From: Candidatus Micrarchaeota archaeon
GTDB lineage: Archaea; Micrarchaeota; Micrarchaeia; Micrarchaeales; CABMGC01
Assembly: GCA_021803945.1 (NCBI GenBank)
Contig: JAJZKW010000001.1
Span: 77,127 to 141,126 of the forward strand
Direction: 5' to 3'
Length of the DNA: 64,000 nucleotides
Each line of letters begins with the position of its first letter. Positions within the stretch are counted from its first letter, which is position 1. The notes under the pieces were generated by a model, which saw nothing but the letters and a program-made list of their open reading frames with translations, was not told the origin of the DNA and ran no database searches. The position numbers and the translations under genes were made by a program. Positions 19,947 through 36,744 of this stretch are shown here, piece after piece.

Positions 19947-19956
19947 CGGCAGGAAG

Positions 19957-20709: not shown

Positions 20710-21005
20710 CCACCATTGCCTATTGCGAGGAATATGGCTTCTGCTATTGAATCAGGAGTCACTCCTATAAACTCAGCGTGATTCAGATGCGCAGCACGAG
20801 CCACTCTGGTTGCAATGCCTTCCTTGCCCTCGCTTATGCTTGCGCCACTAATCGATTTTTCGATTTCGACTAAAGCCTCCTCCGGGTTTATAAAGAAATC
20901 GCCAAGGATCTGTATCTTCTCAATGCTTTTGTCGAAAGTCAGCTTAACAGAGACGAGTTTTCCTCCTGGAACCTTCAATTTGGCTGCTCCGTACAAGGTG
21001 AACAC
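20706..21005 (-). CDS. lplB: Lipoate-protein ligase accessory (C-terminal domain) subunit, LplB-like
   Basis: 99-aa ORF immediately upstream of and overlapping lplA. GGKLVSVKLTF...IQILGDFFINPEE resembles the LplA C-terminal domain, as in the Thermoplasma split ligase. Confidence 0.6.
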   Translation of the reverse strand: MFTLYGAAKLKVPGGKLVSVKLTFDKSIEKIQILGDFFINPEEALVEIEKSISGASISEGKEGIATRVARAAHLNHAEFIGVTPDSIAEAIFLAIGNGG

Positions 21006-21011
21006 CTGTTT

Positions 21012-22262
21012 TTACCTTATCACTACCTTATCAGATATCTCGGTTATCCTGTCGACTCCGTATGTCACAGGGTTTCCGAAGCTGGTGTTTATTATGACCT
21101 TCCCTCGCTTGACATCCACTTTCGTGATCTTGCCTATCATAACCCCAAGCTCGTTGACAACGTTCTTCCCATTGAGCTTGCTTGACATCAGCACGCGCCT
21201 CCTCAGAAAGCTTGCAAATGACGATATTGCGATGCCGAATACTATTGCAAGTATTATGAAGAGCAGCAGTTGGCCGAAATATATCTGTGCGCTGATCCAC
21301 GCAGTAAACGAATACAGCAGCACCCACAGTATCAAGGATGAGCCGAGATATATGCCGTACTTGAATGTCCTGAAGACATGCTTTGTCGACCTGATGTCTA
21401 TTATCCTGCCTACAAGCAACAGGATCAGCGCTATGGGCACTATCACAAGGAAGCCCTCTATGGTATTAGTGATTGCAAGCGGTTTGTTGCTTGTCACCGA
21501 CATTGTTGAAGAGTAGTTCCCGTATGCTATGAACAACCCTGCAACTATGAATAGCAGGGAGCTGAGGTAAAAGGCGAAGCTCATCCTATCGACACTGAAC
21601 CCAAATCCCTTAAACGAATTCAGGAATCCCTCTTCGAGGCCGAAGCCTTTAATCAGTAGGTAAAACCCTATAATGGCTATTGGCAATACCCACCCTGCGC
21701 CTATGAGGTAGCTCACAGCGAACAGCAGTAGGAGGAGTGCCGGGAGACCGAAGACTATCCTTGAATAGTGGGGCTCCTTCAGCTTTTCCAGTATAGTGAA
21801 ATAGGTATTCTCAAAGCTCTCGGCCTGCTTCAGGGTTACTACCTGCACGCTGTTTATCTTTATCCTTGAATTTATTATCGGCATTATCCTCTGGTCGCTT
21901 GCACCGTCTGTTACAAGTATGCATGCATCGCTCTTGTTCTGCTCCAGGACAAGGTCGAGCTGCCTCGCAATCTCTGCATCAGCATGGTACCCTTCGAGCT
22001 CCGATCCGGTTACTGTAGCCACATTTACAAGATATCCGTCCTCCCTCAATTCATCGTATAGCTTTATGGCATAGAACATCGTATTGGAGTCAGGGTCCTC
22101 CGGATCTGCAAGCGCCAGCTTCTCCGCCCCGTTTAGCAGCTGCTGTTTGCCTATAAGCGGACCGGTTATCCTGGTCTTCCTGAAAAGATCGTTGTCGATG
22201 TCTATCGCTAGGATAAGAAGCCTTTCTTCCTTGCTGCCTGTCCTGCGTTTGGAGTCTGCCAT
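21012..22262 (-). CDS. DUF373 family archaeal membrane protein
   Basis: 416-aa ORF. Soluble N-terminal ~170 aa (LILAIDIDNDL...ILVTDGASD) followed by multiple TM helices and a C-terminal beta-rich domain. Confidence 0.55.
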   Translation of the reverse strand: MADSKRRTGSKEERLLILAIDIDNDLFRKTRITGPLIGKQQLLNGAEKLALADPEDPDSNTMFYAIKLYDELREDGYLVNVATVTGSELEGYHADAEIARQLDLVLEQNKSDACILVTDGASDQRIMPIINSRIKINSVQVVTLKQAESFENTYFTILEKLKEPHYSRIVFGLPALLLLLFAVSYLIGAGWVLPIAIIGFYLLIKGFGLEEGFLNSFKGFGFSVDRMSFAFYLSSLLFIVAGLFIAYGNYSSTMSVTSNKPLAITNTIEGFLVIVPIALILLLVGRIIDIRSTKHVFRTFKYGIYLGSSLILWVLLYSFTAWISAQIYFGQLLLFIILAIVFGIAISSFASFLRRRVLMSSKLNGKNVVNELGVMIGKITKVDVKRGKVIINTSFGNPVTYGVDRITEISDKVVIR

Positions 22263-22383
22263 TTAGCTCTGGATTATTATGTAATACAATGTTTATATTC
22301 CTTCCCCGTCGGACAGGGGATGCCTGGGTTTCGTCCTGCCCAAACGGGAAAATCGGGTATTTGAAACGTGAGGGCCATATCCC

Positions 22384-24162
22384 TCATATGTCTTTTAGCT
22401 CCAGATTATAGTCATTTTCGAGCCTCTTTTGATCTATTGCCGTTGGAGACATGTCAACCGAAGACTCGAACCTTTTGTTTTTTGGGAAGAGTATGAAGTC
22501 CCTTATATTTCCCGAGCCTGCAAGCATGGCAGTTATCCGGTCCAGACCGAGTCCCATTCCGCCTTCCGGAGGCGCCCCGTATGACAAGGCTTCTATAAAG
22601 AAACCAAATGATTTATCCACAGCCGAATCGCTCATTCCGAACAGTTCCATTATCTTCCTTTGCATTTTTGGATCGTTTATCCTTATCGCACCACTCCCGA
22701 GCTCGTTTCCATTGAGAACAAGGTCATATTGCCTTCCGCGGACCTTCTCGGGGCTCTTGTCCAAGAACTTGATTGTCGAGGCCGTTGGCGATGTGAATGG
22801 GTTATGCGCCGGCAATAGTTTTCCGGTCACTTCGTCAGCCTCAAACAGAGGGAACTCGTCTACCCATACAAATGAATATTCCGTATTGAAAATCCCTATT
22901 CTGCCGCCTATTGATTTTCTAAGCCTTCCAAGCGCGTCAAGCAATACCTTCTCCGATAAGTCTGCGCCTATTATTATGATATCGCCCTCCTTGGCATCGA
23001 GCTTTCTGAGTATGCCAGTTTCACACTCCCTGAGGCTGTTTGCTATGCTTTCAGGATCAGATCTTATGGCATTGTCCTTGACATATAGCCATGTCAGGCC
23101 CCTCAGGCCAAACAGCTTCGCAAGGGCTATCATCTTCTGCATATAATTTTTGTCTATACTGCCTTCATTCCCGTCGAATTTTGCGTCAAATGCCACTGCC
23201 TTGACGTATCCTCCAGCCTCTACCACTCTCTTAACAACATTGTAGTCTGTGCCCTTCAGCTCGTTTGTTATGTCTGTTATCTTATTGTCAAAGCGCAGGT
23301 CCGGTTTGTCGCTCCCGTACATCCTCATTGCGTCTTCATATTTCATGTGCAAAAACGGGCGTTTTAGCTCCCTGCCCAATACCTCATTGAATATGTTAAC
23401 GAACATCCGCTCTACAATGTCCTGTATGTATTTCTCGTCTTTGAAAGCCACTTCAAAGTCTATCTGCGTGTGCTCGAGCTGCCTATCTTCCCTTGGGTCC
23501 TCGTCCCTGAAGCACCTGGCGATCTGGAAGTATTTGTCGAATCCCGCAATCATTAGTATCTGCTTGTATATCTGGGGCGATTGCGCAAGAGCATAGAATT
23601 CCCCCTTTTCCTGCCTTGACGGGACAATAAGCGTCCTTGAGCCAGTCTCATAATTGTCCTTGACGAGATAGGGTGTCTCCAGTTCCATGAAACCGTTTTC
23701 CCAGAAAAACCTCCTTATCGCTTTCGTTATCTTATCCCTGAATATCATGTTGCTGATCATGGGCTTCCTGCGGAGGTCAAGGTACCTGTACCTAAGCCTG
23801 AGCTCCTCGTTTGCAAGGAACCTGCCTTTCTCATCTATCAATTCAAAGGGAGGGACTGCGGATTCGCTTATCACATCCATAGACTTAACGTAAACTTCAA
23901 CCCTGCCTGTGGGATTTGTTTGGTCGACTGTGTCTTCATCCCTCTTCTCAACGGTTCCGCTTATGCGTATGACATACTCTTTCCCTAGCTTGTCAGCCTC
24001 TTTTTTTATCCCTTTTTCGAAAACGAGCTGTGTAGAGCCGTGCATGTCGGAAAGGTCAACGAATAGCTTTCCGCCATGATCCCGTATGTACCTACACCAC
24101 CCGTATAACGTGACTTGCGCGCCTATGTGGCTCTCGTTCAGGTCACCGCAGCTGAATTCCAT
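22384..24162 (-). CDS. aspS: Aspartyl-tRNA synthetase, bacterial type (with GAD insertion domain)
   Basis: 592-aa ORF. GWCRYIRDHGGKLFVDLSD OB fold; FRDEDPREDRQLEHTQID motif 2; a long insertion between motifs 2 and 3; GNELGSGAIRI and PPEGGMGLGLDRI. Lies 39 nt downstream of gatB on the same strand. Confidence 0.85.
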   Translation of the reverse strand: MEFSCGDLNESHIGAQVTLYGWCRYIRDHGGKLFVDLSDMHGSTQLVFEKGIKKEADKLGKEYVIRISGTVEKRDEDTVDQTNPTGRVEVYVKSMDVISESAVPPFELIDEKGRFLANEELRLRYRYLDLRRKPMISNMIFRDKITKAIRRFFWENGFMELETPYLVKDNYETGSRTLIVPSRQEKGEFYALAQSPQIYKQILMIAGFDKYFQIARCFRDEDPREDRQLEHTQIDFEVAFKDEKYIQDIVERMFVNIFNEVLGRELKRPFLHMKYEDAMRMYGSDKPDLRFDNKITDITNELKGTDYNVVKRVVEAGGYVKAVAFDAKFDGNEGSIDKNYMQKMIALAKLFGLRGLTWLYVKDNAIRSDPESIANSLRECETGILRKLDAKEGDIIIIGADLSEKVLLDALGRLRKSIGGRIGIFNTEYSFVWVDEFPLFEADEVTGKLLPAHNPFTSPTASTIKFLDKSPEKVRGRQYDLVLNGNELGSGAIRINDPKMQRKIMELFGMSDSAVDKSFGFFIEALSYGAPPEGGMGLGLDRITAMLAGSGNIRDFILFPKNKRFESSVDMSPTAIDQKRLENDYNLELKDI

Positions 24163-24201
24163 CAGAAATCAGATAAGAACTCCTAGCCCATGTATTTAAG
24201 C

Positions 24202-25485
24202 TTATTCTCCAAGCACAAGGGCAAGCCTTTCGGCGACGTGTTTCGGGCTCACTTTGTACTTCTTGATCACTATTCCAACGATCGAATTGAACACTTTTTT
24301 ATTAGTTTTATACTCCTTTACAAGATCCGGCCTCTGCGATAATACGTTTAATATCTCCCTGTCTATCTCTTCCGTGCTGACTCCGTGCTTTTCGGCCTCA
24401 ACGTCTTCTCCGTCATTCAGTGCTGCTATGGCATCGTCATCGAGCACTATCCCTTTATCCAGCAAATCAAGCATCTTTCCAAAGCCCTTTTCAGGCATGC
24501 GTATCTTCCCTCGCCTCTTGAGGACCTCTATAGCATTTATTACGGTCTCTATATTGCTCTGTCCTGCTCCGTATTGAATTAACTTTAGCGCTTCTCTGTC
24601 AAACATTACAAGCTCTTTTATCGTCTTAATGGTCTCCTTGCGTTTTCCTGAATACTGCTTTGCCAGTTCGCTTGCTATTACTGTAGCATAAGGGATTATC
24701 CCATTTGTAGGATAAACTGCCAGGTCCGGCTCGTATATGAATCCGTACTCTTCATCGGTCTCCTTCTCCCTTGAAGGGACAGTAGACATCGTCTCTTCGC
24801 TGTAGGACCGCGTCTCAGTGGCCACTCTTTTGTTGCTTGCTATCAGTTCCTCCTGCCTCTTTTCCTCAAACCTCTCTGCATCAACAAGGTTCTTTATCCC
24901 GGTTATGTTCTTTATCTCCACTTTTTCTGCCCCTACAGATATGTTAAGGTCTACCTTCATCTCCTTGTCTATATCCACCCCTGCATAGAAGAGTATGCTT
25001 CTGAGCTCGCTCATAAACTCACGCAGCTCGGCCTCGCTCTCTATGTCAGGCTCCGTCACTATCTCGTTCAATGCCACCCCGGACCTGTTGAAATCAAGTA
25101 GGGAATAATCATCCGCATGTATTATCCTTGCCGGATCCTCTTCAATCTGAACTCTCCGTATCCTGATCCTTTTTCTTTCTATGTCTACATAGCCGCAGTG
25201 CCCTATCGCACCTTCGAGTTGGGTTATCTGGTATGACTTCGGTAGGTCGGGGTAGAAATAGACCTTCCTTATGAAATGCGTCTTTTCATTCACCTTGCAA
25301 TGGACAGCTTTGGCTATGGTCACAGACCGTTTCAAAGCCTCCTCGTTTAGCATTGGCCTTGAACCCGGGAAGCCAAGGCATGTTGGGCATATGGCAGTGT
25401 TGGGCTCCTCTGCTCCTGAGCTGCAACTGCAGAAGAGTTTGCTCTTCGTAGGCAAGGCAACATGCACTTCAAGGCCTATCTTCAT
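24202..25485 (-). CDS. gatB: Asp/Glu-tRNA amidotransferase subunit B
   Basis: MKIGLEVHVALPTKSKLFCSC...CPTCLGFPG. I place the start at Met17 of the track ORF (25485), which forms an ATGA overlap with the gatA stop (tcat at 25482-25485 verified). Confidence 0.85.
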   Translation of the reverse strand: MKIGLEVHVALPTKSKLFCSCSSGAEEPNTAICPTCLGFPGSRPMLNEEALKRSVTIAKAVHCKVNEKTHFIRKVYFYPDLPKSYQITQLEGAIGHCGYVDIERKRIRIRRVQIEEDPARIIHADDYSLLDFNRSGVALNEIVTEPDIESEAELREFMSELRSILFYAGVDIDKEMKVDLNISVGAEKVEIKNITGIKNLVDAERFEEKRQEELIASNKRVATETRSYSEETMSTVPSREKETDEEYGFIYEPDLAVYPTNGIIPYATVIASELAKQYSGKRKETIKTIKELVMFDREALKLIQYGAGQSNIETVINAIEVLKRRGKIRMPEKGFGKMLDLLDKGIVLDDDAIAALNDGEDVEAEKHGVSTEEIDREILNVLSQRPDLVKEYKTNKKVFNSIVGIVIKKYKVSPKHVAERLALVLGE

Positions 25486-26831
25486 ATCGCACCAACATCG
25501 TAATTGAACCTGTAATTGAACTCCTCTTCCCATCCTTGGACGAAGTCAAGCAGGGCATAGTCATTGAAATGGCTTGTGACAAGCTGCACCCCTACCGGGA
25601 ACCCGTTTATGTAATCATACGGAAATGAGACATGGGGGAGGCCTGCCAGGTTTGGTGGCACGGTTATCGAATCCATGCTGTATGATTTTAATGGGCTAAG
25701 TTCCTCAGCTTCCTTTATTGCAGGGGCCTTTATGGGCATTGTAGGCGAGATCAAGAATCCGTCTTTAATGATGCTATTGAGCGCGTCTATCAGCATATGC
25801 CTGAATCTCATCGCCTTTTCATAGTACCTGCTCTTCACGCTTGCGCTTCTCACGAATGTCCCAAGTATTATCCTCCTCTTTGCCTCAGGCCCGAAATTGC
25901 GTCTCGCCTCTGTGAAGAATTCGTTGTATCCCTTCGAGAAATCGTTTACCCTGATCCCATACTTGAATCCGGTGTATTTGGCAAGGTTTGTTGAAGCTTC
26001 TGCCATAGATATTATGTAATATGCAGCAAGCGCCTTGTCTATGAGCGGAAGGCTCCTGTGTTCCACCGAATAGCCGAGGTTCTGCATCTTTGATATGAAC
26101 TTGTCGAACGAGCTCAATATGTCCTGGTCAACATTCGCCATTAGCTGATCTATTATTATGAGCTTTTTCCTGTTCTCGCCATTTATCTGGTGGTCAACGC
26201 ATGTGGTGTCATAGCTGTCGCTGCCTTTGATAATGTCAAATGCATACCTGACATCTCGCGAGCTTCTTCCGATAATGCCTATCTTATCAAGCGAGTTTGC
26301 ATAGTCTATCAGTCCGTATCTAGAAACAAGGCCATATGTAGGGGTGAATCCCACCACCCCGCAGAATGCAGCAGGGCATGATATGGATCCGCCGGTCGAT
26401 TCTGCTACCGCTATATGGTATTTCATCACGGACACTGCTGCAGCTGCGCCTGCGCTCGAACCGCCAGTCACATAGCTGTCTCCAAACGGATTTCGCGGAT
26501 GGTCCTTGCAGTTTATTCCAAAAGTGCCGAATCCGAATTCGTCCATCTTCGTCTTGCCGACAAACCCGAACCCGTTAGATTTAAGCCTTTCAACCGGAGT
26601 TGCATCAAAAGGTGGAACGTATCCTTCAAGCACTGCGGATGACGCAGTAGATTCGACTCCTGAAACACAGATATTATCCTTCACACTGAACGGAATGCCG
26701 GACGATATCTGGCGATTTATACTGCTGAATATGTGAAGTTTTGAGTTCACCTTCTCGAGCTCAGCGATAAGCCGCTCATAATATCCCTCAGGTTTTTCCT
26801 TATCGACAAATTCCTCAATTCCCCCAATCAT
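25482..26831 (-). CDS. gatA: Asp/Glu-tRNA amidotransferase subunit A (amidase family)
   Basis: 449-aa ORF. Amidase signature GGSSAGAAAAV...ESTGGSISCPAAFCGVVGFTPTYG. Confidence 0.85.
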   Translation of the reverse strand: MIGGIEEFVDKEKPEGYYERLIAELEKVNSKLHIFSSINRQISSGIPFSVKDNICVSGVESTASSAVLEGYVPPFDATPVERLKSNGFGFVGKTKMDEFGFGTFGINCKDHPRNPFGDSYVTGGSSAGAAAAVSVMKYHIAVAESTGGSISCPAAFCGVVGFTPTYGLVSRYGLIDYANSLDKIGIIGRSSRDVRYAFDIIKGSDSYDTTCVDHQINGENRKKLIIIDQLMANVDQDILSSFDKFISKMQNLGYSVEHRSLPLIDKALAAYYIISMAEASTNLAKYTGFKYGIRVNDFSKGYNEFFTEARRNFGPEAKRRIILGTFVRSASVKSRYYEKAMRFRHMLIDALNSIIKDGFLISPTMPIKAPAIKEAEELSPLKSYSMDSITVPPNLAGLPHVSFPYDYINGFPVGVQLVTSHFNDYALLDFVQGWEEEFNYRFNYDVGAI

Positions 26832-27109
26832 ATTTTAGGACCCACAATGTAAAACCTGTATATCTTAGAATTACCGAGGAGTTTTCCCGTATCATAGAAA
26901 CCCTCAACTTTGTCTGGCCTTGTCCTGGCAGGCACGTCTATTGGCTGATATGATGGCAGGCAGTTGTCGCAGTCTGCATCCCGTATTGTGTCGAAGTACG
27001 CTATTATCTGAGTTGTCTCATCCTTTATCCTCTTCCGCTCCCCTGGCTCAAGTTTTATTCTGCAGGTCTTAAGCAGCCTATCAAAATCATCGTCTTCCAC
27101 TGGAATCAC
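26828..27109 (-). CDS. gatC: Asp/Glu-tRNA amidotransferase subunit C
   Basis: 93-aa ORF with an ATGA overlap with the gatA start (verified at 26828-26831). Size and position fit GatC. Confidence 0.65.
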   Translation of the reverse strand: MIPVEDDDFDRLLKTCRIKLEPGERKRIKDETTQIIAYFDTIRDADCDNCLPSYQPIDVPARTRPDKVEGFYDTGKLLGNSKIYRFYIVGPKI

Positions 27110-27203
27110 TAACGCAAAACTGCGATTGCAGATAGAAGTCTATGCAAATATTTATAACGTTTATCTCAAGATTTATAAGGTAGTTTAACGCTAAGACTCC
27201 TGT

Positions 27204-27323
27204 GCCAAGGTTGCGGAATCTGGTTAACGCGCCGGTCTTGAATTTAATTCAAGAGCTGATCTCGTGATGCAAAAGAAAACCGGTTCCCTTCGGGGATTTA
27301 GGGTTCAAATCCCTACCTTGGCG
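27204..27323 (+). tRNA. tRNA-Ser (anticodon UGA) with a ~35-nt intron at the canonical 37/38 position
   Basis: Acceptor gccaagg/ccttggc plus G73; D arm tgcg..cgcg; anticodon stem ccggt/accgg with loop ctTGAa; long variable arm tcccttcgggga; T arm agggttcaaatccct. Intron ~27243-27277 contains attcaag, complementary to the anticodon region. No encoded CCA. Confidence 0.8.
27312..27323 (+). repeat. att-like core, copy 1 (3' end of tRNA-Ser UGA)
   Basis: cctaccttggcg. Identical 12-mers occur in the same orientation at 28791-28802 and 33242-33253. Confidence 0.7.
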
Positions 27324-27555
27324 CACCTCTTATTTTGTCGTAGTGAAATTTGATTTTATTATACTTCTTGTCAGTATGTGAATCCACACATGGAATTGGC
27401 CGGCATGGCGCAAGCACAGTCGGTGGGTTTCAATGTATATTTGGGAGAAAACAGATTACTTTCTCTCATAAAATGGTGTTATATGGCGAAAACTTAGGAA
27501 TATCTCTAAAACGCAACACTTATTAAGCTCTTACTGCTAAATTTCTTCGGTTAAC

Positions 27556-28389
27556 TTGGCTGCAAACAATAAAATTAAGGACAAAAACCCTAAGAAAAAA
27601 CACACGAAATTAATGGCAGGCCTTATCATAACTGCTGTGGTTATAATTCTGCTGCTTTATTTATACGAAACATATGGCAGCCTTCCTTCAGGGCTTGCTA
27701 CGGCTGTGTTGTCTGGAAAACCTCTAACTGCGTCGGAGATGCAAACTCTTCTACTGCAGAAAATGTCATCATATGCGTACTTTAAGGCTAATTACACTGG
27801 AAATATAACCATCAATACTGACCCACCATTATCTGTGCTTATATACAAGGACGGATTAAATTACATATATAACATTACATTTTACAATATGCCAAATATC
27901 GGCAATCTTGACATAAACTATATAGATCCAGTCAATGGCAATTTACAGGGAGAATATCTCTGTGTATCCTCTAGCATTACTTCAATAGCAACTAAGCTGA
28001 ACACGGAACCCAATGTGGCAATATGCAAGAATCCTTCCAATCATCCCATTTTCTCAGGAAAAGTGGCAAATCTACTTGTAAATGCATCGAGTTTGGAGAA
28101 CCTAAACATAACGAATTATGGTCTGTCAGAATTTAATGGCCAGCCGTGCTACGCAGTAGCTGGCATAGGTACAATAGAGATTAATAGCAGTATAATGAGC
28201 AGCACTTCAGGACCGACCATCCCTGCTAACATTAGTTTTAATACCTGTTTATCGGCCCAGTATAATTTGCCACTCAATCTAGATATGAAGATACGGGCTT
28301 CTAACGGAGTTACTATGTCTGTGCGTCTGTACAGCTACATGATGGGTCCATCTGGTCCATTTACCCTAGGCTTCGGTAATATTGCATAA
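27556..28389 (+). CDS. Membrane-anchored extracellular protein, N-glycosylation-sequon rich (unknown function)
   Basis: 277-aa ORF (TTG start; alternative start MAGLIITAVV...). One N-terminal TM helix, then many N-x-S/T sequons (NYT, NIT, NAS, NIT, NSS, NIS) and conserved Cys residues. Confidence 0.5.
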   Translation: MAANNKIKDKNPKKKHTKLMAGLIITAVVIILLLYLYETYGSLPSGLATAVLSGKPLTASEMQTLLLQKMSSYAYFKANYTGNITINTDPPLSVLIYKDGLNYIYNITFYNMPNIGNLDINYIDPVNGNLQGEYLCVSSSITSIATKLNTEPNVAICKNPSNHPIFSGKVANLLVNASSLENLNITNYGLSEFNGQPCYAVAGIGTIEINSSIMSSTSGPTIPANISFNTCLSAQYNLPLNLDMKIRASNGVTMSVRLYSYMMGPSGPFTLGFGNIA

Positions 28390-28790
28390 CTGTGATCTAA
28401 AACACGCAAGGAAAACATATTGAAAGCGGGTTGCCAGGTATATGGACATACCTATACCAAACGCGGATACTGTCGTTCATCAGACTCATCTATATCATTT
28501 CAAATATTCTAAATCCTCTAATAACAAGAACCCATCATAGCATTAAGGAATTTGTGATTCCTGGTGATAGGGCAGTAGGCTGTATTTTGTCCCTTTTATG
28601 AACCTGCCCTATCCTCTTCCTGATGAAGCTTCTTTAGAAATACACTCTAGGTTGTCGTTAAACAGCATATCTCGCCCAGAGCCGATATTTGTATGCTCTT
28701 AGAAAAGAGACTGTTGAAACGCAAATTTTAATGTTTTTATATCCCTTAGGATATAGATGAAGCTTAGGCGTCATCTTGGCAAGTAAAAGG

Positions 28791-28802
28791 CCTACCTTGG
28801 CG
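28791..28802 (+). repeat. att-like core, copy 2
   Basis: cctaccttggcg inside a 666-nt stretch with no convincing ORF. Confidence 0.65.
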
Positions 28803-29055
28803 TAGTATTTAATATGCTATAGCCTTCCTTTTAAGTCCTACAGCAATCATTTGACTAAAAGTAATGCTTCAATGGTCACTAAATGCGCAATGCCTTTTTC
28901 TGTCTCCCTAGCCATCCGTTCGACGAAGTTCGAAATCACTGCGCCTACCTTCCATATATAATCCAAACCACCGGAACTAACAGGATTAGTCGACACAGCA
29001 AACCTACCATACAGATTAATATATCAGATAATGAATTAACAATTCTGGTAAAATT

Positions 29056-29904
29056 ATGGCCTCAAAAACAAAAGATAGCCAGTCTCCTGGCTCAGAAAAC
29101 CAGCAACCTAGGACATATGATGTAACTTTAGCATGGCCTGCAGGCAATATCACCGCGTTAGTGCGTGGCATGGTTCCGGCATCTAGCAAGAAGCCTATAA
29201 ATGACAGAATATTGGGAATGTTTCCTAATGTTGAACAGGTAGGCTTCTATTCGGAAGAAAGAAACAGACCGGCATTGGAGATGGCAGGCGGAGAGTTTTG
29301 TGGGAATGCTCTACGCTCGGTAGCATATTTGATTCTCGAGGGAAAGCCAGGAGAGGCATTATTCAGCGTCTTTGGCGTAGAACAGAAGCTTGTAGCCGGA
29401 GTGCGGGAAGAAGGCTCTGCATTTGCACAGATACCTCTCAGTAGAGAATTTGATACGATAAGAAAATTAAATGGTGGGATGTGGCAGGTTGACCTAGATG
29501 GCATATCACACATTGTAGTAAAGGTCACGAAGGCGCTGGGCGAAGAGCAGGCAAAACTCGTTGCAAAAGAATTACTAACAAAAACAAATCTGCTTGAAGA
29601 TAAACCTGCATCTGGAGTGATGTTTATTAGAGAGACGGACCTTGAAGGTGTCTTGGAAATGGAGCCTGTTGTCTTTGTTAGGGGAATACAGACATTCTTC
29701 TATGAGACTGCCTGCGCCAGTGGAACATCTGCAGTAGGAATATGGTATAACCAGGAAAGCGGTGCAGAAGATACGCTGCTAAAGGTCAGGCAACCAAGCA
29801 GAGAGGTGCTTGATGTCAGGGTCAGGAAAAACAACGGGCAGCTTGAGGACGTGTTCATCGAAGGTCCTATGAAAATATTACAAAGAACCGAAGTGAGCAT
29901 ATGA
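29056..29904 (+). CDS. DapF/PhzF-fold epimerase/racemase-like protein
   Basis: 282-aa ORF. N-terminal WPAGNITALV (compare the GNDF strand of DapF). Two pseudo-symmetric Cys motifs, GGEFCGNALRSVAY and ETACASGTSAVG, sit where DapF-family catalytic cysteines lie. Confidence 0.55.
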   Translation: MASKTKDSQSPGSENQQPRTYDVTLAWPAGNITALVRGMVPASSKKPINDRILGMFPNVEQVGFYSEERNRPALEMAGGEFCGNALRSVAYLILEGKPGEALFSVFGVEQKLVAGVREEGSAFAQIPLSREFDTIRKLNGGMWQVDLDGISHIVVKVTKALGEEQAKLVAKELLTKTNLLEDKPASGVMFIRETDLEGVLEMEPVVFVRGIQTFFYETACASGTSAVGIWYNQESGAEDTLLKVRQPSREVLDVRVRKNNGQLEDVFIEGPMKILQRTEVSI

Positions 29905-30485
29905 AAGGTATGAAAACAATACAGACAAAATCGGGTCTGTTGGCTGTACTTAGAGACTATTCAACAGCGGATAGGGAATCTGTAGTAGAACTTTTTAGAA
30001 AAGCATTTTCTGGACCGCCATACTTTGAAAACAACCCTTCAGAGGTAATTAGAGACTTGTTCAGAACTTACGAGATGGAACCTGACCTTTTTTTTCATGT
30101 TGTGACGCCTATTCAGAATGGTGAAGGAGAAACGGTCATCGGATTGAGTATAGCATACAGACTGGACCTCTCAAAATTCCGATGTTTAGAAGTCCCATTT
30201 GAAGAAATGGGCATTTCAATAAATTCGCATAATATAGCATACGGGGCTGAGTTAGCTGTCGAACCTGGAGAGCGATGGAGAAACCAAGGAATTGCAACAA
30301 TCATGATGGCAGAAAGGATACGACTAGTCAGAGAAGCAGGATTTGACTATTTGATAGGAAGGACTCGTTTTGACAGTTTTACAAATCCCATATACGCGAG
30401 GTTCGGCTTCATCCGTATCGAAGGGCTAGCCGATCCAGATTTTCCAGAACGTCGCTATTTTGTCAAGGATCTGAATAGTGCTTAG
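29901..30485 (+). CDS. GNAT family N-acetyltransferase
   Basis: 194-aa ORF with an ATGA overlap with the upstream gene. Acetyl-CoA motif A: VEPGERWRNQGIATIMMAERIRLVREAGF. Confidence 0.65.
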   Translation: MKGMKTIQTKSGLLAVLRDYSTADRESVVELFRKAFSGPPYFENNPSEVIRDLFRTYEMEPDLFFHVVTPIQNGEGETVIGLSIAYRLDLSKFRCLEVPFEEMGISINSHNIAYGAELAVEPGERWRNQGIATIMMAERIRLVREAGFDYLIGRTRFDSFTNPIYARFGFIRIEGLADPDFPERRYFVKDLNSA

Positions 30486-31194
30486 AATGGGCATATCAGA
30501 AATTCATAATAGGCTGGAACGAAGGATGATTACTTATCGTGACCTGATTTCTATCAAGGTAAATGACAATGGGGACCGCATCGTCCCGCTCGAAAAGGAC
30601 AAGATTCTTTTTGGCTACATGCCAGAACTTTCAGACATGAAAGTGATATTGGGAGATACTATTTTTGTCAGAGAGGGCACCTATGACAAATTGCTGAAGG
30701 CACAACACAGCCTGAAGACCAAAAATCCGAACCTGTCTTTATATGTGACTTATGGCTATAGAAGCCTTAAAATCCAGACGGAACGTTTCATGCTCCGGCT
30801 TAAGGAGTGCGCTAATATTTATTTCCAGAATCCTGAAGACCTATACGAAGAGGTGCACAGGTCTATTGCTGTACCGTCAGTGGCAGGACATCCTACGGGA
30901 GGAGCTGTTGACATTAAAATAATAGATATACCAAGTGGCAAATTCTTGGATTTTGGATCAGAACAATACAATTATTCCAACAAGAAGTATTATGTTTATT
31001 CGCCTAATGTTAAGGGCAAGGCTATGAGTAATAGGATGTTGCTTAGAGAATGTATGGTTGGCGCAGGTTTTGCTCCGTTCGATGGAGAATGGTGGCATTT
31101 CTCATATGGAGATAGAGAGTGGGCGTGCTTTTATAAAAAGCACACTGCTTTATACGATCAGATCAAAGTAAGTGAACTTGATAAATTTAAGTAG
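30478..31194 (+). CDS. VanX/DdpX-like D-alanyl-D-alanine dipeptidase (peptidase M15D)
   Basis: 238-aa ORF (GTG 30478 or ATG 30487). Zn-ligand motifs SVAGHPTGGAVDI (SxHxxGxAxD) and EWWHFSYGD. Confidence 0.7.
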   Translation: MLRMGISEIHNRLERRMITYRDLISIKVNDNGDRIVPLEKDKILFGYMPELSDMKVILGDTIFVREGTYDKLLKAQHSLKTKNPNLSLYVTYGYRSLKIQTERFMLRLKECANIYFQNPEDLYEEVHRSIAVPSVAGHPTGGAVDIKIIDIPSGKFLDFGSEQYNYSNKKYYVYSPNVKGKAMSNRMLLRECMVGAGFAPFDGEWWHFSYGDREWACFYKKHTALYDQIKVSELDKFK

Positions 31195-31417
31195 TGTCAC
31201 TTTTCTGCTATAGCATAAAACACATCAAGTAAATGGAAATCACTGAAAAACATTATAAAAAATGGACAGATCTAAAGGCAAAGATAGAAAATCTCTTCTA
31301 GTGGCAAAAAGGAGAAAAGATTAGGCTATATGATTGAAGCGAATGGTAATAAATCTATTTCAGGTTGATCCAACTATAACTTATTATTAAGATTTGTATG
31401 TATATAATGGGACAAAC

Positions 31418-33130
31418 ATGAGGCATGACCATAAACTAGAAACCAAAACACTTACAATTGAGGGGAAAAACCTTACCATTAACGACGTTGTCAGAGTGGG
31501 ATTAGCTAGACCAGGAGATATCAATATACTGCTTTCAGAGTCTGCAGCAGAAAAAATCAATAAGTCAAGAAAGATTGTTGAAAAGATATTAGACGATGGG
31601 CTCATTGTATATGGTATAAACACGGGCTTTGGCTCTTATGCAGAAAAAGTCATATCGAGGGAGGAGACAGAGCTATTGCAGCGGTATCTAATAAAGAGCC
31701 ACGCCACAGGTGCAGGCGATCCCTACAGTCCAGAGATAATACGTTCGGCAATGCTCATACGCGCGAATACTCATGCTAGAGGCAATTCAGGAATACGGCT
31801 CAAACTAGTCCAGATTCTATTAGATATGCTGAATAAAGGCGTAGTTCCATACGTCCCCGAGCACGGATCTCTTGGTGCAAGCGGCGATTTGGCACCGCTT
31901 TCTCACATTGCACTATGCCTTTCAAAAGACCCTAAGTCAAACCGAGCTGAAGAAAGGCTCACTAAAAAGGCGAAAGCCGGAGAAACGTTTACTATACAGG
32001 AGACCAGAGAGGCAATCAAAGAATCAGGAGAGGCATATCTATGGCAGGGCTCATCTTGGGTAAAGATGACTGGTATAGAAGCCATGGCAAAAGCCGGTAT
32101 TGATAGAATAGCCCTTGAGGCAAAAGAGGGCCTTGCACTGAACAACGGGTGCAGCGTGTCTGCTGCCACATCCTGTTTTGTAATTCATTTTGGCGAGAGA
32201 GCGCAGCAATCTGCAGATCTGATAGCTGCTCTGGTGATGGAGGCTGTGGGTGGTTTTGAGTCCGCATTTTCTTGTGAAATTAACGATAGTAGACCCTACT
32301 ACGGACAGATGGAAGTAGCAAGACGTATCAGAGAATACATAAAGGACAGTGGCGTGGCAAAGCATGTAGACGAGATACAAAACTCGAAGAATGTGATGAA
32401 TGACTTCAACAAAGTGCAAGATTCCTACTCCATAAGGTGCATACCTCAGGTCCACGGACCTGTTCTAGACGCATTGGAATATGCAAAGTCTGTGATAAGT
32501 ATAGAGATAAACGCTGCAACAGACAATCCTCTTATCTTTCCAGACTCCAACTATATCAACAAGGCATTCAGTGGGGGCAACTTCCACGGACAAAATATAT
32601 CTCTTTCAATAGACTTCCTTAGCATTGCGCTATGTACGCTTGGAAATATTTCGGAAAGGCGGATATTCAAACTGATGGAAAACAGACTCAACGGAGGTCT
32701 TCCTGATTTTCTCATACACCCGGTAAGCGGGAAGCATGGTCTGATGAGCGGGGCAATGATAATGCAATACACTGCCGCATCACTCGCCTCTGAAAACAAA
32801 GTGTTGTCGCACCCTGCATCTGCAGACAGCATAACTTCAAGTGCAGATCGGGAGGACTTCGTAAGCATGGCTCCGATAAGTGCAAGGAAGACCTATAGGA
32901 TACTTGACAACCTCGAGAATATACTTGCGATAGAGTGCTGGTGCTCAATAATTGCGCTAAGACTCAGGCATGAAGAAAAGGCAAAACTAAGCAGAACAGC
33001 TACCAACACATTGAATTTCATGAAAGAAGACATATCTGAATTCAATGAAGATCGGGTAACATACGATGAGGTCAAGTGGATAAAGTCGCTTATACACTCA
33101 GGCGAATTGTTAAAGGCTGCAAGCAAGTAA
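31418..33130 (+). CDS. MIO-dependent aromatic amino acid/histidine ammonia-lyase or aminomutase (HAL/PAL family)
   Basis: GSLGASGDLAPLSHIAL (the Ala-Ser-Gly MIO triad), YGINTGFG, NNGCS, QDSYSIRC, TDNPLIF. About 25-30 extra residues follow the MIO loop relative to typical HutH. I prefer the ATG at 31418 to the track's TTG at 31394. Confidence 0.8.
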   Translation: MRHDHKLETKTLTIEGKNLTINDVVRVGLARPGDINILLSESAAEKINKSRKIVEKILDDGLIVYGINTGFGSYAEKVISREETELLQRYLIKSHATGAGDPYSPEIIRSAMLIRANTHARGNSGIRLKLVQILLDMLNKGVVPYVPEHGSLGASGDLAPLSHIALCLSKDPKSNRAEERLTKKAKAGETFTIQETREAIKESGEAYLWQGSSWVKMTGIEAMAKAGIDRIALEAKEGLALNNGCSVSAATSCFVIHFGERAQQSADLIAALVMEAVGGFESAFSCEINDSRPYYGQMEVARRIREYIKDSGVAKHVDEIQNSKNVMNDFNKVQDSYSIRCIPQVHGPVLDALEYAKSVISIEINAATDNPLIFPDSNYINKAFSGGNFHGQNISLSIDFLSIALCTLGNISERRIFKLMENRLNGGLPDFLIHPVSGKHGLMSGAMIMQYTAASLASENKVLSHPASADSITSSADREDFVSMAPISARKTYRILDNLENILAIECWCSIIALRLRHEEKAKLSRTATNTLNFMKEDISEFNEDRVTYDEVKWIKSLIHSGELLKAASK

Positions 33131-33241
33131 AGGGCACTGCAGTCGTATGGGTAATAGAACTTCAACCTCAGGCAGAGACATCTCATAATACCAAATACTG
33201 TTAAACAATATGTTCTGTACGAAGAACTAAAATGTCTATGA

Positions 33242-33253
33242 CCTACCTTGGCG
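33242..33253 (+). repeat. att-like core, copy 3 (distal island boundary)
   Basis: cctaccttggcg, 112 nt after the HAL-family stop codon. Confidence 0.65.
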
Positions 33254-33355
33254 AAATCCTTTAGGCCGGATCTAAGAATACCGAAACGGTTTGCAAGGTT
33301 ACGCTATTCTGAGATTGGTGTTTTTATGCAGCCGTACAAAGCAGGCAATGTCAGC

Positions 33356-33823
33356 TCATTTCGCGTTTTTTATGTAAACTAATGCCTCCCCTGCTCTATC
33401 CGCATTTGGTGGTATGCCAAATTCTTTTGTCACATTGATTATTCTAGTAATTGTAGGTTCCTGTCCCACAGCCAATAGGTAATAATACGCATATATGTAC
33501 ATCAGGTGGCTAGTTATCCCCGTTTTAAGAAGCGCTTCGATATGGGCTGGATTCGGCGTCATCCCAATCGAATTTATGGCCTTAGTCAAATTATCCTCGG
33601 TTATTTCCCTTCCGGCAAAGCTGAGGAATCCTGCTGCGTATACATACGGCATCAGCCCCTGAGCGAAAACCTCCCTTATATGATCCGTTTCCATAAACTT
33701 CTTGAAACCGGCAATCATCACCACCTTGGTAGTCGATGTGAGCGCAGTAACAATAGCGTCTATCGTTTCTGACAAAACTTCTTCGGCATCAAGCTCGTTC
33801 TTGGGCACATTGTCATTCAACAA
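33356..33823 (-). CDS. Protein with two tandem ribosomal stalk P1 (L12P) N-terminal-like domains, lacking the acidic tail
   Basis: 155-aa ORF. MPYVYAAGFLSFAGREITEDNLTKAINSIGMTPNPAHIEALL aligns with archaeal P1 [41 protein letters not shown]. A weaker second copy is YIYAYYYLLAVGQEPTITRIINVTKEFGIPPNADRAGEAL. Confidence 0.5.
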   Translation of the reverse strand: MLNDNVPKNELDAEEVLSETIDAIVTALTSTTKVVMIAGFKKFMETDHIREVFAQGLMPYVYAAGFLSFAGREITEDNLTKAINSIGMTPNPAHIEALLKTGITSHLMYIYAYYYLLAVGQEPTITRIINVTKEFGIPPNADRAGEALVYIKNAK

Positions 33824-33921
33824 ATCACCAATAATTAATTACTATAAGAAAGCCAGCATCTTTAATATCTTTGCCATTGTCATTTTCATAAAGGGCCTCG
33901 CTTTGGCAAAAAGGTTTTTTT

Positions 33922-34602
33922 ATGAAAATAATAGCCCATAGGGGAAATCACGCCGCTGCAGGAGAGAACACCTTAAAGAGCTTTAGCAATGCGCTGAGAG
34001 CAGGCGTTGACGGAATAGAACTCGATGTGCAGTTGACTCTTGACAGGATCCCCGTAGTGATACATGATGCTAGGGTTAACAGGACAACGAACGGAAGAGG
34101 ATTGGTATCAAGAACCAGCTTCAGGGAGCTGGAAACGCTAGATGCCGGAAATGGGGAGCATATACCCAGCCTCTTTCAAGCGCTTAGCCTTATCGGTAGC
34201 AAGGCGCATGCGTATATAGAGTTGAAGAACGGGGTGGGAGGAAACGAGTTATTTGTGGCTCAGAGCGTTCTGGATGCGAAGCAAATAGAGACAGTTACGT
34301 TTATCTCATTCGATCATAGCGCAATAGACAGGATAAAAGATCTCGGATTGAAATGCACGCTAGGATATAGTTACGGATTTTTTATTCCTGACTTAAATGA
34401 GCTAAATAATATTGAGGTAATAGTTCCAAGGCATAATTTTGTGACCAAGAATCTCGTATCCATAGCCCATAGCCGTGGGATTGAAGTGATAGCGTGGACT
34501 GTTGATGATGTTAGAAAAGCCGTCAAGCTTGAAAAGATGGGGGTTGACGGAATAATCACGAATCATTCAGAAAGGATGATAAATGCCCTTCGCCGGCTAT
34601 AA
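33922..34602 (+). CDS. Glycerophosphodiester phosphodiesterase (GDPD family)
   Basis: 226-aa ORF. IAHRGN...ENTLKSF..A...GVDGIELDVQLTLDRIPVVIHD...TNG motifs. Confidence 0.8.
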   Translation: MKIIAHRGNHAAAGENTLKSFSNALRAGVDGIELDVQLTLDRIPVVIHDARVNRTTNGRGLVSRTSFRELETLDAGNGEHIPSLFQALSLIGSKAHAYIELKNGVGGNELFVAQSVLDAKQIETVTFISFDHSAIDRIKDLGLKCTLGYSYGFFIPDLNELNNIEVIVPRHNFVTKNLVSIAHSRGIEVIAWTVDDVRKAVKLEKMGVDGIITNHSERMINALRRL

Positions 34603-34676
34603 TTATCCATGCTCAAACATTTAAAAGCCAAGGCGCGAAGGAATGTGTATTATTGCACATATGCCTAATTTTAGCA

Positions 34677-35909
34677 CTAAAGCCTGAGCCTGTCTTTTAG
34701 GATTTTTATGAAATCCTTGATAAAATTCCTGTTCTCGCCGGCGTCTTTTTTGACTTCTGTATCTTGGGACAAAAATCGCAGTAGCTCGGATGTGAACTCC
34801 TCTGGCTTCTCTAGGTGTGGCCCGTGCTCGCATTCAAACTTGACTAATGTGCAGTGCTCAAGCCTTGATGCGGCATCCTCGGCAGAAGAAACCGGGAATA
34901 TTGGGTCTTCAGTCCCATGAACAAGGAGTATCTTTATGTTGGCATCATTTAATTCCGAGAGCCTGTTTAAGTAGATTGTGCTAAAGCCCTTCATCACAGC
35001 CTTATGTTCTTGCCTCTGCCTCAATAGATCAGAAAGGAGGTTGCGCGGCGATGCGCTCAGTTGATCATGTAGGAAATCTAGAAACGCCGGAGGTATTGAG
35101 TCGTCATCAGAGAAATATTCCCTTGCTATATGCACATACTTCTCCGGAAGGTCAGGGTTGCCCGTTATGTCCCTAAGCGCGCTTCTCAGGGCCTTTTCAT
35201 TCCTGCTCAGCACCTTGAGAGCCATCTTGCTCAGTCTTGGAAACGCCGTAAGCGCTCGTATCCAAATCGGCATCTCCATGTCGTGAATCCCGTAACTGTC
35301 TATGAGTACTAGTTTGTTTACGCGAGAGGGGTTGTCCAATGCAAATCCTATGGATATCCCTCCTCCCATCGAATTTCCGACTACATCAGCCTTGGAAATG
35401 GACAAAGAATCCATGAATTTTCCTACAAAGTCTTTTACATAATACCTCAAAGTGCACGGGACGCCGGGCCTTGCCGTATTTCCGTATCCGGGCAGATCCG
35501 GGGCTATTACATGATACTTTTCTGCCAGGGCTAGTATCTGGTATTTCCATGTTTTGTATGCGCTGGAATTTCCGCCGCCGTGTATGAGAAGTACGGTCTC
35601 TTTATTCTGCATTCCAGATTCAAGGTAGAATACGTTTAGCCCATTGACTTTTGCATGCATCTCCCTTACTCCATTTAATAAGAGGAACCCTCTCGTCTGG
35701 AATTCGCTAAGGCTATGGCCCAGCTTTTCTTCGGTATTCTTTAACAACGATGCAGGCCCTATCTTGTATGCATGTTCACCTGAAGCTCCTGCTTCGTTCC
35801 TATGCCGACCTGCAGCGTATTTCATGTAATCAGGCGAATTGTATGGCTGAGACGACAGAGCACCTACAAAGCCGAGGTGACTATCTAGCATCATCCCATC
35901 CTTTCCCAT
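34677..35909 (-). CDS. Alpha/beta-fold hydrolase with large lid insertion
   Basis: 410-aa ORF. VLLIHGGGNS oxyanion region, nucleophile elbow GNSMGG, late HGTEDP and CEHGPHLEKPEEF. The N-terminal ~75 aa may not be translated. Confidence 0.7.
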   Translation of the reverse strand: MGKDGMMLDSHLGFVGALSSQPYNSPDYMKYAAGRHRNEAGASGEHAYKIGPASLLKNTEEKLGHSLSEFQTRGFLLLNGVREMHAKVNGLNVFYLESGMQNKETVLLIHGGGNSSAYKTWKYQILALAEKYHVIAPDLPGYGNTARPGVPCTLRYYVKDFVGKFMDSLSISKADVVGNSMGGGISIGFALDNPSRVNKLVLIDSYGIHDMEMPIWIRALTAFPRLSKMALKVLSRNEKALRSALRDITGNPDLPEKYVHIAREYFSDDDSIPPAFLDFLHDQLSASPRNLLSDLLRQRQEHKAVMKGFSTIYLNRLSELNDANIKILLVHGTEDPIFPVSSAEDAASRLEHCTLVKFECEHGPHLEKPEEFTSELLRFLSQDTEVKKDAGENRNFIKDFIKILKDRLRL

Positions 35910-36009
35910 TTTCCAATGAATTAGATATATTTAATGGTATAAATATTCTTTCTCTAACTTTTTGCAGGCATTTTGCTAGGCCTGCATCGCTCACAAAATC
36001 AGTTATGCT

Positions 36010-36744
36010 CTACTTTATTTTAACGCGGTATCCTGGTATTATTTTTGGCACTATCCCGCTCATATATGGCTTTTTGCATAGCTCATCTGCCCTCTTTCGT
36101 TCCAATTCGGATGACGGTATGAAAACAATGGATTTTTTTCCCATCACTTTCACTGCCAACTCGAGGGAAGGACTTACCTCTTCGACAGTCGTTGCCATTA
36201 TTACATATGCATTGCCCTTGCTCACTCCGGATAACTTTGCAATTTCATTGTCTTTATCAGGCAATTCGCCCATAACTACTATCACAGTATCAGCATGCAG
36301 CCCGGTTGGCACAGAAGCAAGGAGTACGTTCACCTGCACATCCTCCCGCCCTAACCTCTTGAGTATCCCTCTGGCCTGGCTCTCCTGAAGATCTCTATTG
36401 AATTCCTCCATCCTTTCCATCGTTTGCCTGTCTGTCAATGCTCCTTCAAATCCATGCCCTCTAAAATACTTCACGAACTTCTCCTCGAACAATGCCAATG
36501 ATTCCGTGCTGATACTCAGATCCTTGCCTGCGAGTATGGTAGCAGCAGCCTTGATCCCGCCGCAGTCCCTATGCACAGTTATATCCAATGCTGTTGTCTC
36601 CGGATGTTGCGCAAATAACATTTCTATTTCTTTTCGCAGTGCCATGGTTGCCCCTCCGGCGTTCCTGCAATCAAATGGCCCAGGGAGCCTGAAGTCCATG
36701 CATCCCAAATATATGGTTCTTTCGCTTTTATCTTGCGTTGACAT
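36010..36744 (-). CDS. Beta-class (Cab-type) carbonic anhydrase-like domain protein with ~120-aa C-terminal extension
   Basis: 244-aa ORF. GCMDFRL ... RNAGG ... VHRDCGG reproduces the CxDxR / NAGG / HxDCG zinc-site pattern of Cab-type beta-CAs. The C-terminal half is unassigned. Confidence 0.45.
   Translation of the reverse strand: MSTQDKSERTIYLGCMDFRLPGPFDCRNAGGATMALRKEIEMLFAQHPETTALDITVHRDCGGIKAAATILAGKDLSISTESLALFEEKFVKYFRGHGFEGALTDRQTMERMEEFNRDLQESQARGILKRLGREDVQVNVLLASVPTGLHADTVIVVMGELPDKDNEIAKLSGVSKGNAYVIMATTVEEVSPSLELAVKVMGKKSIVFIPSSELERKRADELCKKPYMSGIVPKIIPGYRVKIK

Follow-up and report, generated by a model that had tools for sequence, protein, structure and literature searches.

Archaeal integrated elements are documented that have a complete tRNA gene copy at one end and a partial one at the other, and points of comparison include PYG1, a 21.4-kb island flanked by 44-bp repeats (PMC9897764). 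In bacteria, a streptococcal study documents tandem arrays containing decayed elements (PMC5357655, citing Pavlovic 2004 and Bellanger 2011). Here we consider a repeat-bounded island at a tRNA-Ser(UGA) gene in 64 kb of contig JAJZKW010000001.1 from a Candidatus Micrarchaeota archaeon (the whole stretch analysed, hereafter the window, numbered from its first letter). With a probability of roughly 0.8, we take the island to be a decayed tandem array of two integrase-less islets, inserted at the 3' end of the tRNA gene by site-specific recombination of the tyrosine-recombinase type. An initial annotation, made from the letters of the sequence, had proposed a bipartite island of ~5.9 kb at this position.

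Exact repeats of a tRNA 3' end

The tRNA gene, the three repeats (R1 to R3) and the two segments that they delimit are arranged as follows.

27204-27323, plus strand: tRNA-Ser(UGA), the attB-bearing gene (Rfam RF00005, 45.5 bits against a gathering score of 29)
27312-27323, plus strand: R1, CCTACCTTGGCG, the 3' end of the tRNA gene
27324-28790, plus strand: segment 1, 1467 bp, 38.7% G+C, with p277 as its single gene and then 400 bp of non-coding DNA
28791-28802, plus strand: R2, an exact intergenic copy of CCTACCTTGGCG
28803-33241, plus strand: segment 2, 4439 bp, 42.4% G+C, with a four-gene metabolic cluster
33242-33253, plus strand: R3, an exact copy of CCTACCTTGGCG between the convergent genes for histidine ammonia-lyase and a protein designated p155

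Direct reading of the sequence gives the anticodon, TGA, at 27239-27241, and the Rfam alignment places an intron of ~35-37 nt at the canonical 37/38 position, at roughly 27243-27277; the gene is therefore an intron-containing tRNA-Ser(UGA), and the identity first assigned to it stands. It is near-identical in the relatives L044 and L046, described below. ARAGORN did not report a tRNA-Ser(UGA) at 27204-27323, which was detected by the Rfam covariance model alone, and screens for tRNA-anchored islands in DPANN archaea thus need intron-aware tRNA detection.

The repeated 12-mer takes in the final 4 nt of the T-stem, the 3' strand of the acceptor stem and the discriminator. Exactly three copies are present in the window, all exact and all on the plus strand, which verifies the initial annotation's placement of the copies at 27312, 28791 and 33242, the first of them within the tRNA gene. 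No further copy with up to one mismatch occurs on either strand of the 64 kb, and allowing up to three mismatches near the island, including the genes for p155 and a glycerophosphodiester phosphodiesterase (GDPD), yielded no fourth repeat. The identity among R1, R2 and R3 ends abruptly at 12 nt, and their flanks are unrelated. The distances between the repeats agree with the ~1.5 and ~4.4 kb originally estimated for the two segments.

At the local base composition, ~1.6e-4 copies of the 12-mer are expected per 6 kb of one strand, so that two extra same-strand copies within 6 kb have a probability of ~1e-8. Just one further family of repeats of 12 nt or more reaches three same-strand copies in the window, a purine-rich, low-complexity 14-mer, and the argument that the copies are improbable by chance holds on both counts. 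The 14-mer, GGAGGAAGGAGAGG, lies on the plus strand at 12678, 46502 and 58450, with one copy inside the 16S rRNA gene, and its triple occurrence is probably a coincidence of low complexity.

We considered whether the extra 12-mers might nevertheless be due to chance, or represent a motif for RNA processing or regulation that is unrelated to mobility, the intervening DNA being variable chromosome that was deleted in L046. The short length of the repeat, just 12 bp, is compatible with such an origin, but the probability given above speaks against it, as does the Rfam search for tRNA-like fragments or any other RNA family or structure at R2 and R3, which at E<=1 matched just the real tRNA. A similar arrangement also recurs at a second tRNA gene of the window.

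52200-52285, minus strand: tRNA-Ser(GCU)
within 51402-52285, minus strand: a 782-bp cassette bounded by TTCTCGTACCCAGCGT repeats, with a VapB-like gene (51514-51750) and a PIN/VapC gene (51731-52171)

The 3'-terminal 16-mer of tRNA-Ser(GCU), TTCTCGTACCCAGCGT, is repeated exactly at 51402-51417, where 0.02 copies would be expected even at up to two mismatches. The PIN/VapC gene matches PF01850 at 1.8e-11, and no integrase was found in the 782-bp cassette. A HAD hydrolase gene adjoining the cassette (50655-51329) has a G+C content at third codon positions (GC3) of 0.32, the lowest in the window.

The composition of the island sets it apart from its surroundings, with core composition judged from the 64-kb window alone. 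Its G+C content is 41.6%, against 47.5% for the rest of the window, which makes it the lowest-GC 5.9-kb stretch there, and the tetranucleotide distance from the window mean is highest in the 3-kb windows starting at 26001-29001. The five island genes have GC3 values of 0.35-0.44 (0.41), with p277 at 0.39, compared with 0.57+-0.07 in 46 other open reading frames (ORFs; Mann-Whitney p=2.6e-4). The proposal that the island is AT-richer was therefore correct in direction, but the 37-38% G+C first quoted is too low for the whole and fits segment 1 only; the comparison with the core that had been called for finds a difference in all three measures.

The tRNA-Ser(UGA) locus in relatives

The window carries an archaeal 16S rRNA gene, and relatives were graded by the identity of their GatA, which is 64-74% for eight Candidatus Micrarchaeota species-representative metagenome-assembled genomes (MAGs) and 86-89% for two closer contigs. 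The flanks with which they were compared, and the stretch that adjoins R3, are these.

26828-27109, minus strand: gatC, conserved left flank
33254-33917, no strand assigned: lineage-specific stretch past R3, closed by no repeat, containing p155
33356-33823, minus strand: p155, 155 aa, a paralog that resembles the N-domain of ribosomal protein P1 (TIGR03685, 3e-9, partial match)
33922-34602, plus strand: GDPD, first gene of the conserved right flank

All relatives keep the gene order gatC-gatA-gatB-aspS-DUF373-lplA on the left, and in most of them tRNA-Ser(UGA) adjoins gatC. To the right of the tRNA gene synteny is broken in every relative; the eight more distant Micrarchaeota keep gatCAB-tRNA-Ser, and the genes that follow differ in each.

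The closer of these comparisons reveal an empty site and an integrase. L046, a Micrarchaeaceae relative (ENA ERZ27237460; GatA 86%), has gatC, tRNA-Ser(UGA), ~150 bp and then GDPD-abh-p244, with no cargo. Its nucleotide homology to the window stops at 27325, 2 bases past the tRNA, and restarts at 33918, 4 bases before GDPD. A contig with a GatA identical to that of L046, L047, comes from sample ERZ27237063, as does the island-bearing strain. At 1534-3301 of L047 (ERZ27237063 k141_359328), a truncated gatB (residues 1-392) is joined directly to a truncated GDPD (residues 27-225), in an order inverted relative to L046; the join reflects either chimeric assembly or a genuine inversion spanning the tRNA-Ser locus.

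In L044 (GCA_054610635.1, Micrarchaeaceae; GatA 89%), homology to the window stops exactly at 27323, and an intact tyrosine recombinase of 402 aa begins ~60 bp after tRNA-Ser(UGA) (L044 576-1784, minus strand), followed by an N6/N4 DNA methyltransferase and then the end of the contig. The recombinase matches PF00589 at 5.9e-24 and has a SAM-like N-domain and a C-terminal zinc ribbon. Its nearest solved structures are archaeal XerA and XerC-like proteins; among viral proteins, the integrases of archaeal pleomorphic viruses come closest to it (31% identity across 91% of the query, E 2e-51). The insertion in L044 is a candidate integrated provirus or plasmid. A complete element of the L044 type was sought in JGI metagenomes, where the scan turned up a single fragment (34% identical, on a contig of 1.7 kb), and in IMG/VR, where nothing matched and from which the 23-mer at the tRNA 3' end is also absent.

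Two closely related Micrarchaeota contigs, L014 and L015, with 93-96% nucleotide identity in their flanks, differ in the filler alone, and the homology break falls at the tRNA 3' end. In L015, CTACCTTGGCGT is repeated 2.7 kb downstream of tRNA-Ser(UGA) and encloses an Asp/Glu racemase (L015 6783-9540), whereas its sister L014 has an unrelated 2.76-kb filler with a DUF6498 protein (L014 2661-5416). An ORF of 101 aa in L015 was tried as the N-terminal remnant of an integrase and set aside as a hint only (weak pairwise match, E 0.006, with no Pfam backing). Elsewhere the tRNA gene is followed by a PIN-domain gene (L016) or by IS630-like and IS5-like transposase genes (L010). In both L016 and L044, part of the T-arm recurs 34-40 nt after the tRNA (GTTCAAATCCCTAC and AATCCCTACC, respectively), and in L044 this second copy lies between the tRNA and the integrase, at 1805-1848.

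Because homology with the relatives breaks at the 3' end of tRNA-Ser(UGA), and the insertions found there differ, this position is a recurrent integration hot spot of the family. The comparison of the locus among related genomes, which the initial annotation had suggested, thus found gene order to vary, from the empty site of L046 to the recombinase of L044. Together with the differing insertions, the atypical composition and the repeat-bounded VapBC cassette at tRNA-Ser(GCU), this supports the interpretation as an island; relatives did not share one gene order, and composition was not that of the core. The same comparisons bear on an origin of the 12-mers by chance or as a motif. The boundary with L046 does not coincide with R3, and the cargo has archaeal homologs, as would be expected of ordinary variable chromosome; however, the tRNA 3' end is exactly where homology is lost in comparisons with three independent relatives, and the recurrence of repeats extends to L015 as well as to tRNA-Ser(GCU), so that we regard this origin as very improbable.

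A second alternative is that the repeats are target-site duplications of an element of the transposase or casposase type that targets tRNA 3' ends. Casposons do target tRNA 3' ends, repeats of 12-16 bp fall within the size range of such duplications, and L010 has transposase genes beside the same tRNA. On the other hand, both segments and the VapBC islet lack terminal inverted repeats, their alignment scores being equal to those of shuffled controls; Pfam and NCBIfam searches detected neither a transposase nor Cas1 in the island; and the relative with a mobility gene at the canonical position, L044, has a tyrosine recombinase. The missing inverted repeats thus speak against a transposon or casposon with target-site duplications, and we give this explanation scarcely any weight.

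Beyond R3, residues 58-99 of p155 match the N-terminal domain of the archaeal ribosomal stalk protein P1, and by inspection the protein lacks the acidic C-terminal tail. No homolog of p155 was found in the related loci L001-L027, nor is there one in L046. An exact look-up of the protein also gave no match, because public gene calls use other start codons.

Gene content of the two segments

The five genes between the repeats, all on the plus strand, encode the following proteins.

27556-28389, plus strand: p277, a putative surface protein with an N-terminal membrane anchor, rich in sequons
29056-29904, plus strand: CntK/HisR-like racemase independent of pyridoxal phosphate, with a DapF fold (precomputed match to PF26317 CntK_N)
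29901-30485, plus strand: GNAT-type acetyltransferase (weak Pfam matches)
30478-31194, plus strand: VanX-like M15 dipeptidase of the D-Ala-D-Ala type (PF01427, 3.7e-15; HxxGxAxD and EWWH motifs)
31394-33130, plus strand: histidine ammonia-lyase (PF00221, 3.5e-159)

The protein of segment 1, p277, has no Pfam or NCBIfam match, and its family is narrow: a set of 1.84 billion proteins includes 47 representative homologs, the closest at 78% identity.

In segment 2, the racemase retains both catalytic Cys motifs, GEFCGNA and TACASGT, as seen in its alignment to the histidine racemase of PDB 9cr6 (2.7e-13). It matches the NCBIfam histidine racemase at 2.4e-22, with 79.9 bits against a HisR equivalog cut-off of 400, and the CntK model with 64.2 bits against a cut-off of 300. 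The fold family is thus clearly CntK/HisR-like, with histidine as a putative substrate. The GNAT gene begins before the stop of the racemase gene, and translational coupling of the two is therefore probable; elsewhere, a homolog search found a protein, P0120, in which GNAT and CntK are fused. The M15 dipeptidase gene in turn overlaps the GNAT gene, and its NCBIfam matches are below cut-off. The histidine ammonia-lyase, 570 aa with a start at 31418 in public gene calls, scores 552.8 bits with the subfamily model NF006871, above its cut-off of 524, and 517 with TIGR01225, slightly below the cut-off of 539; the MIO motif ASG (Ala-Ser-Gly) is present within GSLGASGDLAPLSH, and histidine ammonia-lyases in the PDB match the ORF at 1e-93.

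These assignments suggest that segment 2 is a module for the salvage or catabolism of histidine, including D-histidine or D-aminoacyl dipeptides. The operon-like layout, with the histidine ammonia-lyase gene coming after three overlapping genes, and the recurrent linkage of these families to histidyl-tRNA synthetase (HisRS) suggest that amino acids may be released from dipeptides containing D-aminoacyl residues or histidine, that D- and L-histidine may be interconverted, and that L-histidine may then go to charging or deamination. No paper in the collection of literature searched names both a histidine racemase and a histidine ammonia-lyase.

The homologs of the cargo indicate where it may have come from. 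At 59-64% identity, those closest to the histidine ammonia-lyase include some named Thermoplasmatales and Marsarchaeota, and they lie on archaeal-looking contigs where HisRS, GNAT and M20 peptidase genes adjoin. For the CntK-like racemase, the closest homolog (59%) comes from an archaeal contig, near a 490-aa protein, a peptidase and HisRS, and the housekeeping genes of that contig are 51-56% identical to those of the window. The CntK-like/peptidase/HisRS arrangement also occurs on a bacterial contig, and several named homologs are from bacteria of the Candidate Phyla Radiation (CPR). The cargo thus resembles DPANN-type genes that were relocated or came from a related lineage, and not from a distant domain. 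The initial annotation had called these functions unusual for archaea, a description that did not survive this comparison, since the closest homologs are archaeal or DPANN and the same genes occur near HisRS in other DPANN and CPR genomes.

On both the archaeal and the bacterial contig, after the CntK-like racemase come an uncharacterised ~500-aa protein and a peptidase (M20/M28 or beta-lactamase-like), and in L036 the histidyl-tRNA synthetase lies several genes beyond the CntK-like racemase cluster. The module loci are L036 10001-16673, L037 10001-14607 and L042 1398-6643. The linkage of CntK, peptidase and HisRS, the position of the histidine ammonia-lyase beside HisRS, GNAT and M20 genes, and the P0120 fusion suggest a conserved, undescribed histidine-centred module in genome-reduced symbionts.

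The absence of an integrase, as first reported for the island, was corroborated by several searches. Pfam and NCBIfam profiles found no integrase domain in the five cargo ORFs or in three small intergenic ORFs, and tblastn of the L044 integrase and methyltransferase against the 64-kb window gave no match at E<=10. No ORF of at least 50 aa crosses R1, R2 or R3, and the small ORFs nearest to R2 (28431-28601 and 28883-29125) belong to no Pfam family.

Mechanism and comparison with known systems

Tandem accretion is the best-supported model for this array. An element with an attP that shares the 12-bp core CCTACCTTGGCG would have recombined with the tRNA gene, restoring the tRNA and leaving a second core at the far end of the insertion. 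A second element would then have entered one of the two att sites, giving the order tRNA (core), segment 1, (core), segment 2, (core). Later deletions would have removed the recombinase and the other element genes, so that the surface-protein gene and the four-gene histidine/D-amino-acid module remain. The array would now be fixed in the sampled population and would move only if a core-acting recombinase were supplied in trans. We infer two successive integrations, in this number and order and as the initial annotation had suggested, as well as the use of the 12-bp core as crossover site and the loss of the integrase by deletion. Mobilisation in trans by a related integrase has a circumstantial basis, the integrase at the same site in L044.

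Several observations weigh against this reading. The repeats are identical over a short 12 bp, against the usual 40-50 bp of well-studied archaeal elements, and alignments of the L046 tRNA trailer with the sequences after R1, R2 and R3 score at the level of shuffled sequence. Neither an integrase, whole or fragmentary, nor an excisionase, nor any hallmark gene of viruses or plasmids was detected in the island. Use of the 12-mer core by the L044 integrase is a candidate link only, because the far end of that element lies off the contig. The closest homologs of the cargo are archaeal or DPANN, diverged roughly as much as housekeeping genes; the donor was therefore probably a related lineage, with composition as the sole sign of foreignness. 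The region missing in L046 is 6.6 kb and not 5.9 kb, since it continues for 664 bp past R3 and includes p155. The repeats bounding the originally proposed ~5.9-kb island are where they were said to be, but the lineage-specific region is longer, and R3 is not demonstrably its outer edge; the additional 664 bp are either ancestral flank that was lost in L046 or an older insertion with a decayed repeat. Finally, among ~15 contigs of the population no empty-site or one-segment variant was found, and the full array is present at 99.9-100% identity. Strain variants had been sought among contigs encoding exactly the GatC, GDPD, p277 and histidine ammonia-lyase of the window.

One of these contigs, k141_23995, is 99.99% identical to the window over 23922-44602. 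L050, an overlapping stretch of k141_23995, is 98.0% identical over 20877-36389 and just 68% at 19531-20679; in view of the 99.99% identity across 23922-44602, the mismatches of L050 must lie to the left of 23922. This suggests a strain-level recombination boundary left of aspS (window 19531-23922).

The population data are also relevant to the possibility that the locus is an active cassette system, in which the repeats are functional and the segments are exchanged, excised and re-inserted by a recombinase acting in trans, in the manner of cis-mobilizable elements or integron cassettes. Possible sources of the recombinase would be an element such as the L044 type, whether resident or newly arrived, XerA, or the mobilome of a host archaeon. 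Repeats that are still perfectly exact while their flanks share nothing would fit such activity, as would repeat-bounded, integrase-less cassettes at two different tRNA-Ser genes of one genome, and small cassettes that differ among lineages at the same tRNA, with an intact integrase in one of them. In addition, the Logan contigs L009 and L045 end at or next to the tRNA 3' end, but such ends may reflect low coverage. Against this stand the lack of strain-level presence/absence variation and of rearranged junctions among the ~15 contigs, and the lack of a recombinase in the 64-kb window by tblastn of the L044 integrase. We consider an active system unlikely.

The junctions to be expected from movement of the segments can be specified. 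An empty attB would join the tRNA end GGGTTCAAATCCCTACCTTGGCG to AAATCCTTTAGGCCGG (the sequence after R3) or to TAGTATTTAATATGC (after R2), and deletion of segment 1 with the R3 flank kept would give AGTAAAAGGCCTACCTTGGCG followed by AAATCC. Excised circles are predicted to contain GCAAGTAAAAGG-core-CACCTCTTATTTTG for segment 1, ATGTCTATGA-core-TAGTATTTAATATGC for segment 2, and ATGTCTATGA-core-CACCTCTTATTTTG for both segments together. No variant or rearranged junction was present among the assembled contigs of the population.

DPANN archaea have tiny genomes and depend on hosts, and the locus bears on the route by which they gain accessory metabolism. On the reading preferred here, a decayed tandem array, the locus shows classical tRNA-targeted site-specific integration at work in Micrarchaeaceae. 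The tRNA-Ser(UGA) gene beside gatCAB is a recurrent hot spot across several species, with the L044 type as a candidate active integrase. What was inserted there can be reduced by decay to islets that lack an integrase and yet bring in a complete metabolic module, in this case a racemase, a GNAT protein, a dipeptidase and a histidine ammonia-lyase. DPANN MAGs could be mined for acquired genes with short tRNA 3'-end repeats as the marker, the ends of intron-containing tRNAs included. In a survey from 2026, no provirus was reported for 1356 Micrarchaeota genomes (PMC13573593).

A broader proposal, which we think improbable, is that in Micrarchaeota, and perhaps in other DPANN archaea, tRNA 3' ends anchor a pool of tiny integrase-free cassettes that are shuffled in trans. 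If it were true, cassettes with cores of 12-16 bp would carry metabolic modules, surface proteins or toxin-antitoxin genes, the recombinase would reside on rare proviruses, plasmids or the host mobilome, and genome-reduced symbionts would have an integron-like system of cassette exchange.

Among described systems, the closest are the archaeal tRNA elements of the tyrosine-recombinase type, such as the TKV-type elements of Thermococcales, PYG1 and the proviruses of the pleolipovirus/SNJ2 type. They share with the island insertion at a tRNA 3' end, restoration of the tRNA, a partial tRNA copy as the far repeat, absence from relatives and an atypical composition, and the L044 integrase resembles those of pleomorphic viruses. 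The locus differs from them in its repeats of 12 bp (16 bp at the second tRNA), in the lack of an integrase or element backbone, in the small size of its islets (1.5, 4.4 and 0.8 kb) and in its host, a DPANN archaeon of the Micrarchaeaceae.

She and colleagues are said to have described, in 2001, an SSV-type 'gene capture' in Sulfolobales, by which elements become trapped beside tRNA genes. As in that process, the island would be an element that decayed next to a tRNA into a chromosomal island with tRNA-derived repeats. In SSV-type integration the integrase gene is cut in two, with its N- and C-terminal parts left at opposite borders, whereas no integrase fragments border R1, R2 or R3 and the L044 integrase is intact after integration; the absence of split fragments argues against an SSV-type partitioning element. 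Integron arrays likewise consist of small cassettes without mobility genes that are separated by a recurring short site, but here there is no integron integrase, attI or structured attC, the site is a tRNA 3' end, and there are just two cassettes. An integron was rejected because no integrase was found among the ORFs searched or by tblastn, and Rfam found no RNA structure at R2 and R3.

There is also a likeness in organisation to the accretion of integrative conjugative and integrative mobilizable elements in Streptococcus and to their cis-mobilizable derivatives (CIMEs), as the streptococcal study presents them. There too, three att-derived repeats delimit two adjacent segments that have no recombination module of their own, and origin by integration into a resident attL or attR, followed by deletion, is plausible. 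CIMEs differ in being derived from bacterial conjugative elements with longer att sites and in that their cis-mobilization was shown experimentally, whereas the island is known from its sequence and has no conjugation genes.

In terms of these classes, the locus has the tRNA 3' position, tRNA-identical repeats, empty site in a relative and differing composition of a tRNA island, without an integrase of its own, and it has the att-derived repeats at one target and the lack of recombination and transfer modules that characterise cis-mobilizable or accretion arrays. Since tRNA-linked islands with direct repeats are textbook mechanism, the value of the finding is incremental. What is new is the host group, the very short cores, the very small integrase-less islets at two tRNAs of one genome, and the family-wide hot spot together with its candidate active integrase. 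The island is thus real but of an ordinary kind, of which few have been described in Micrarchaeota.

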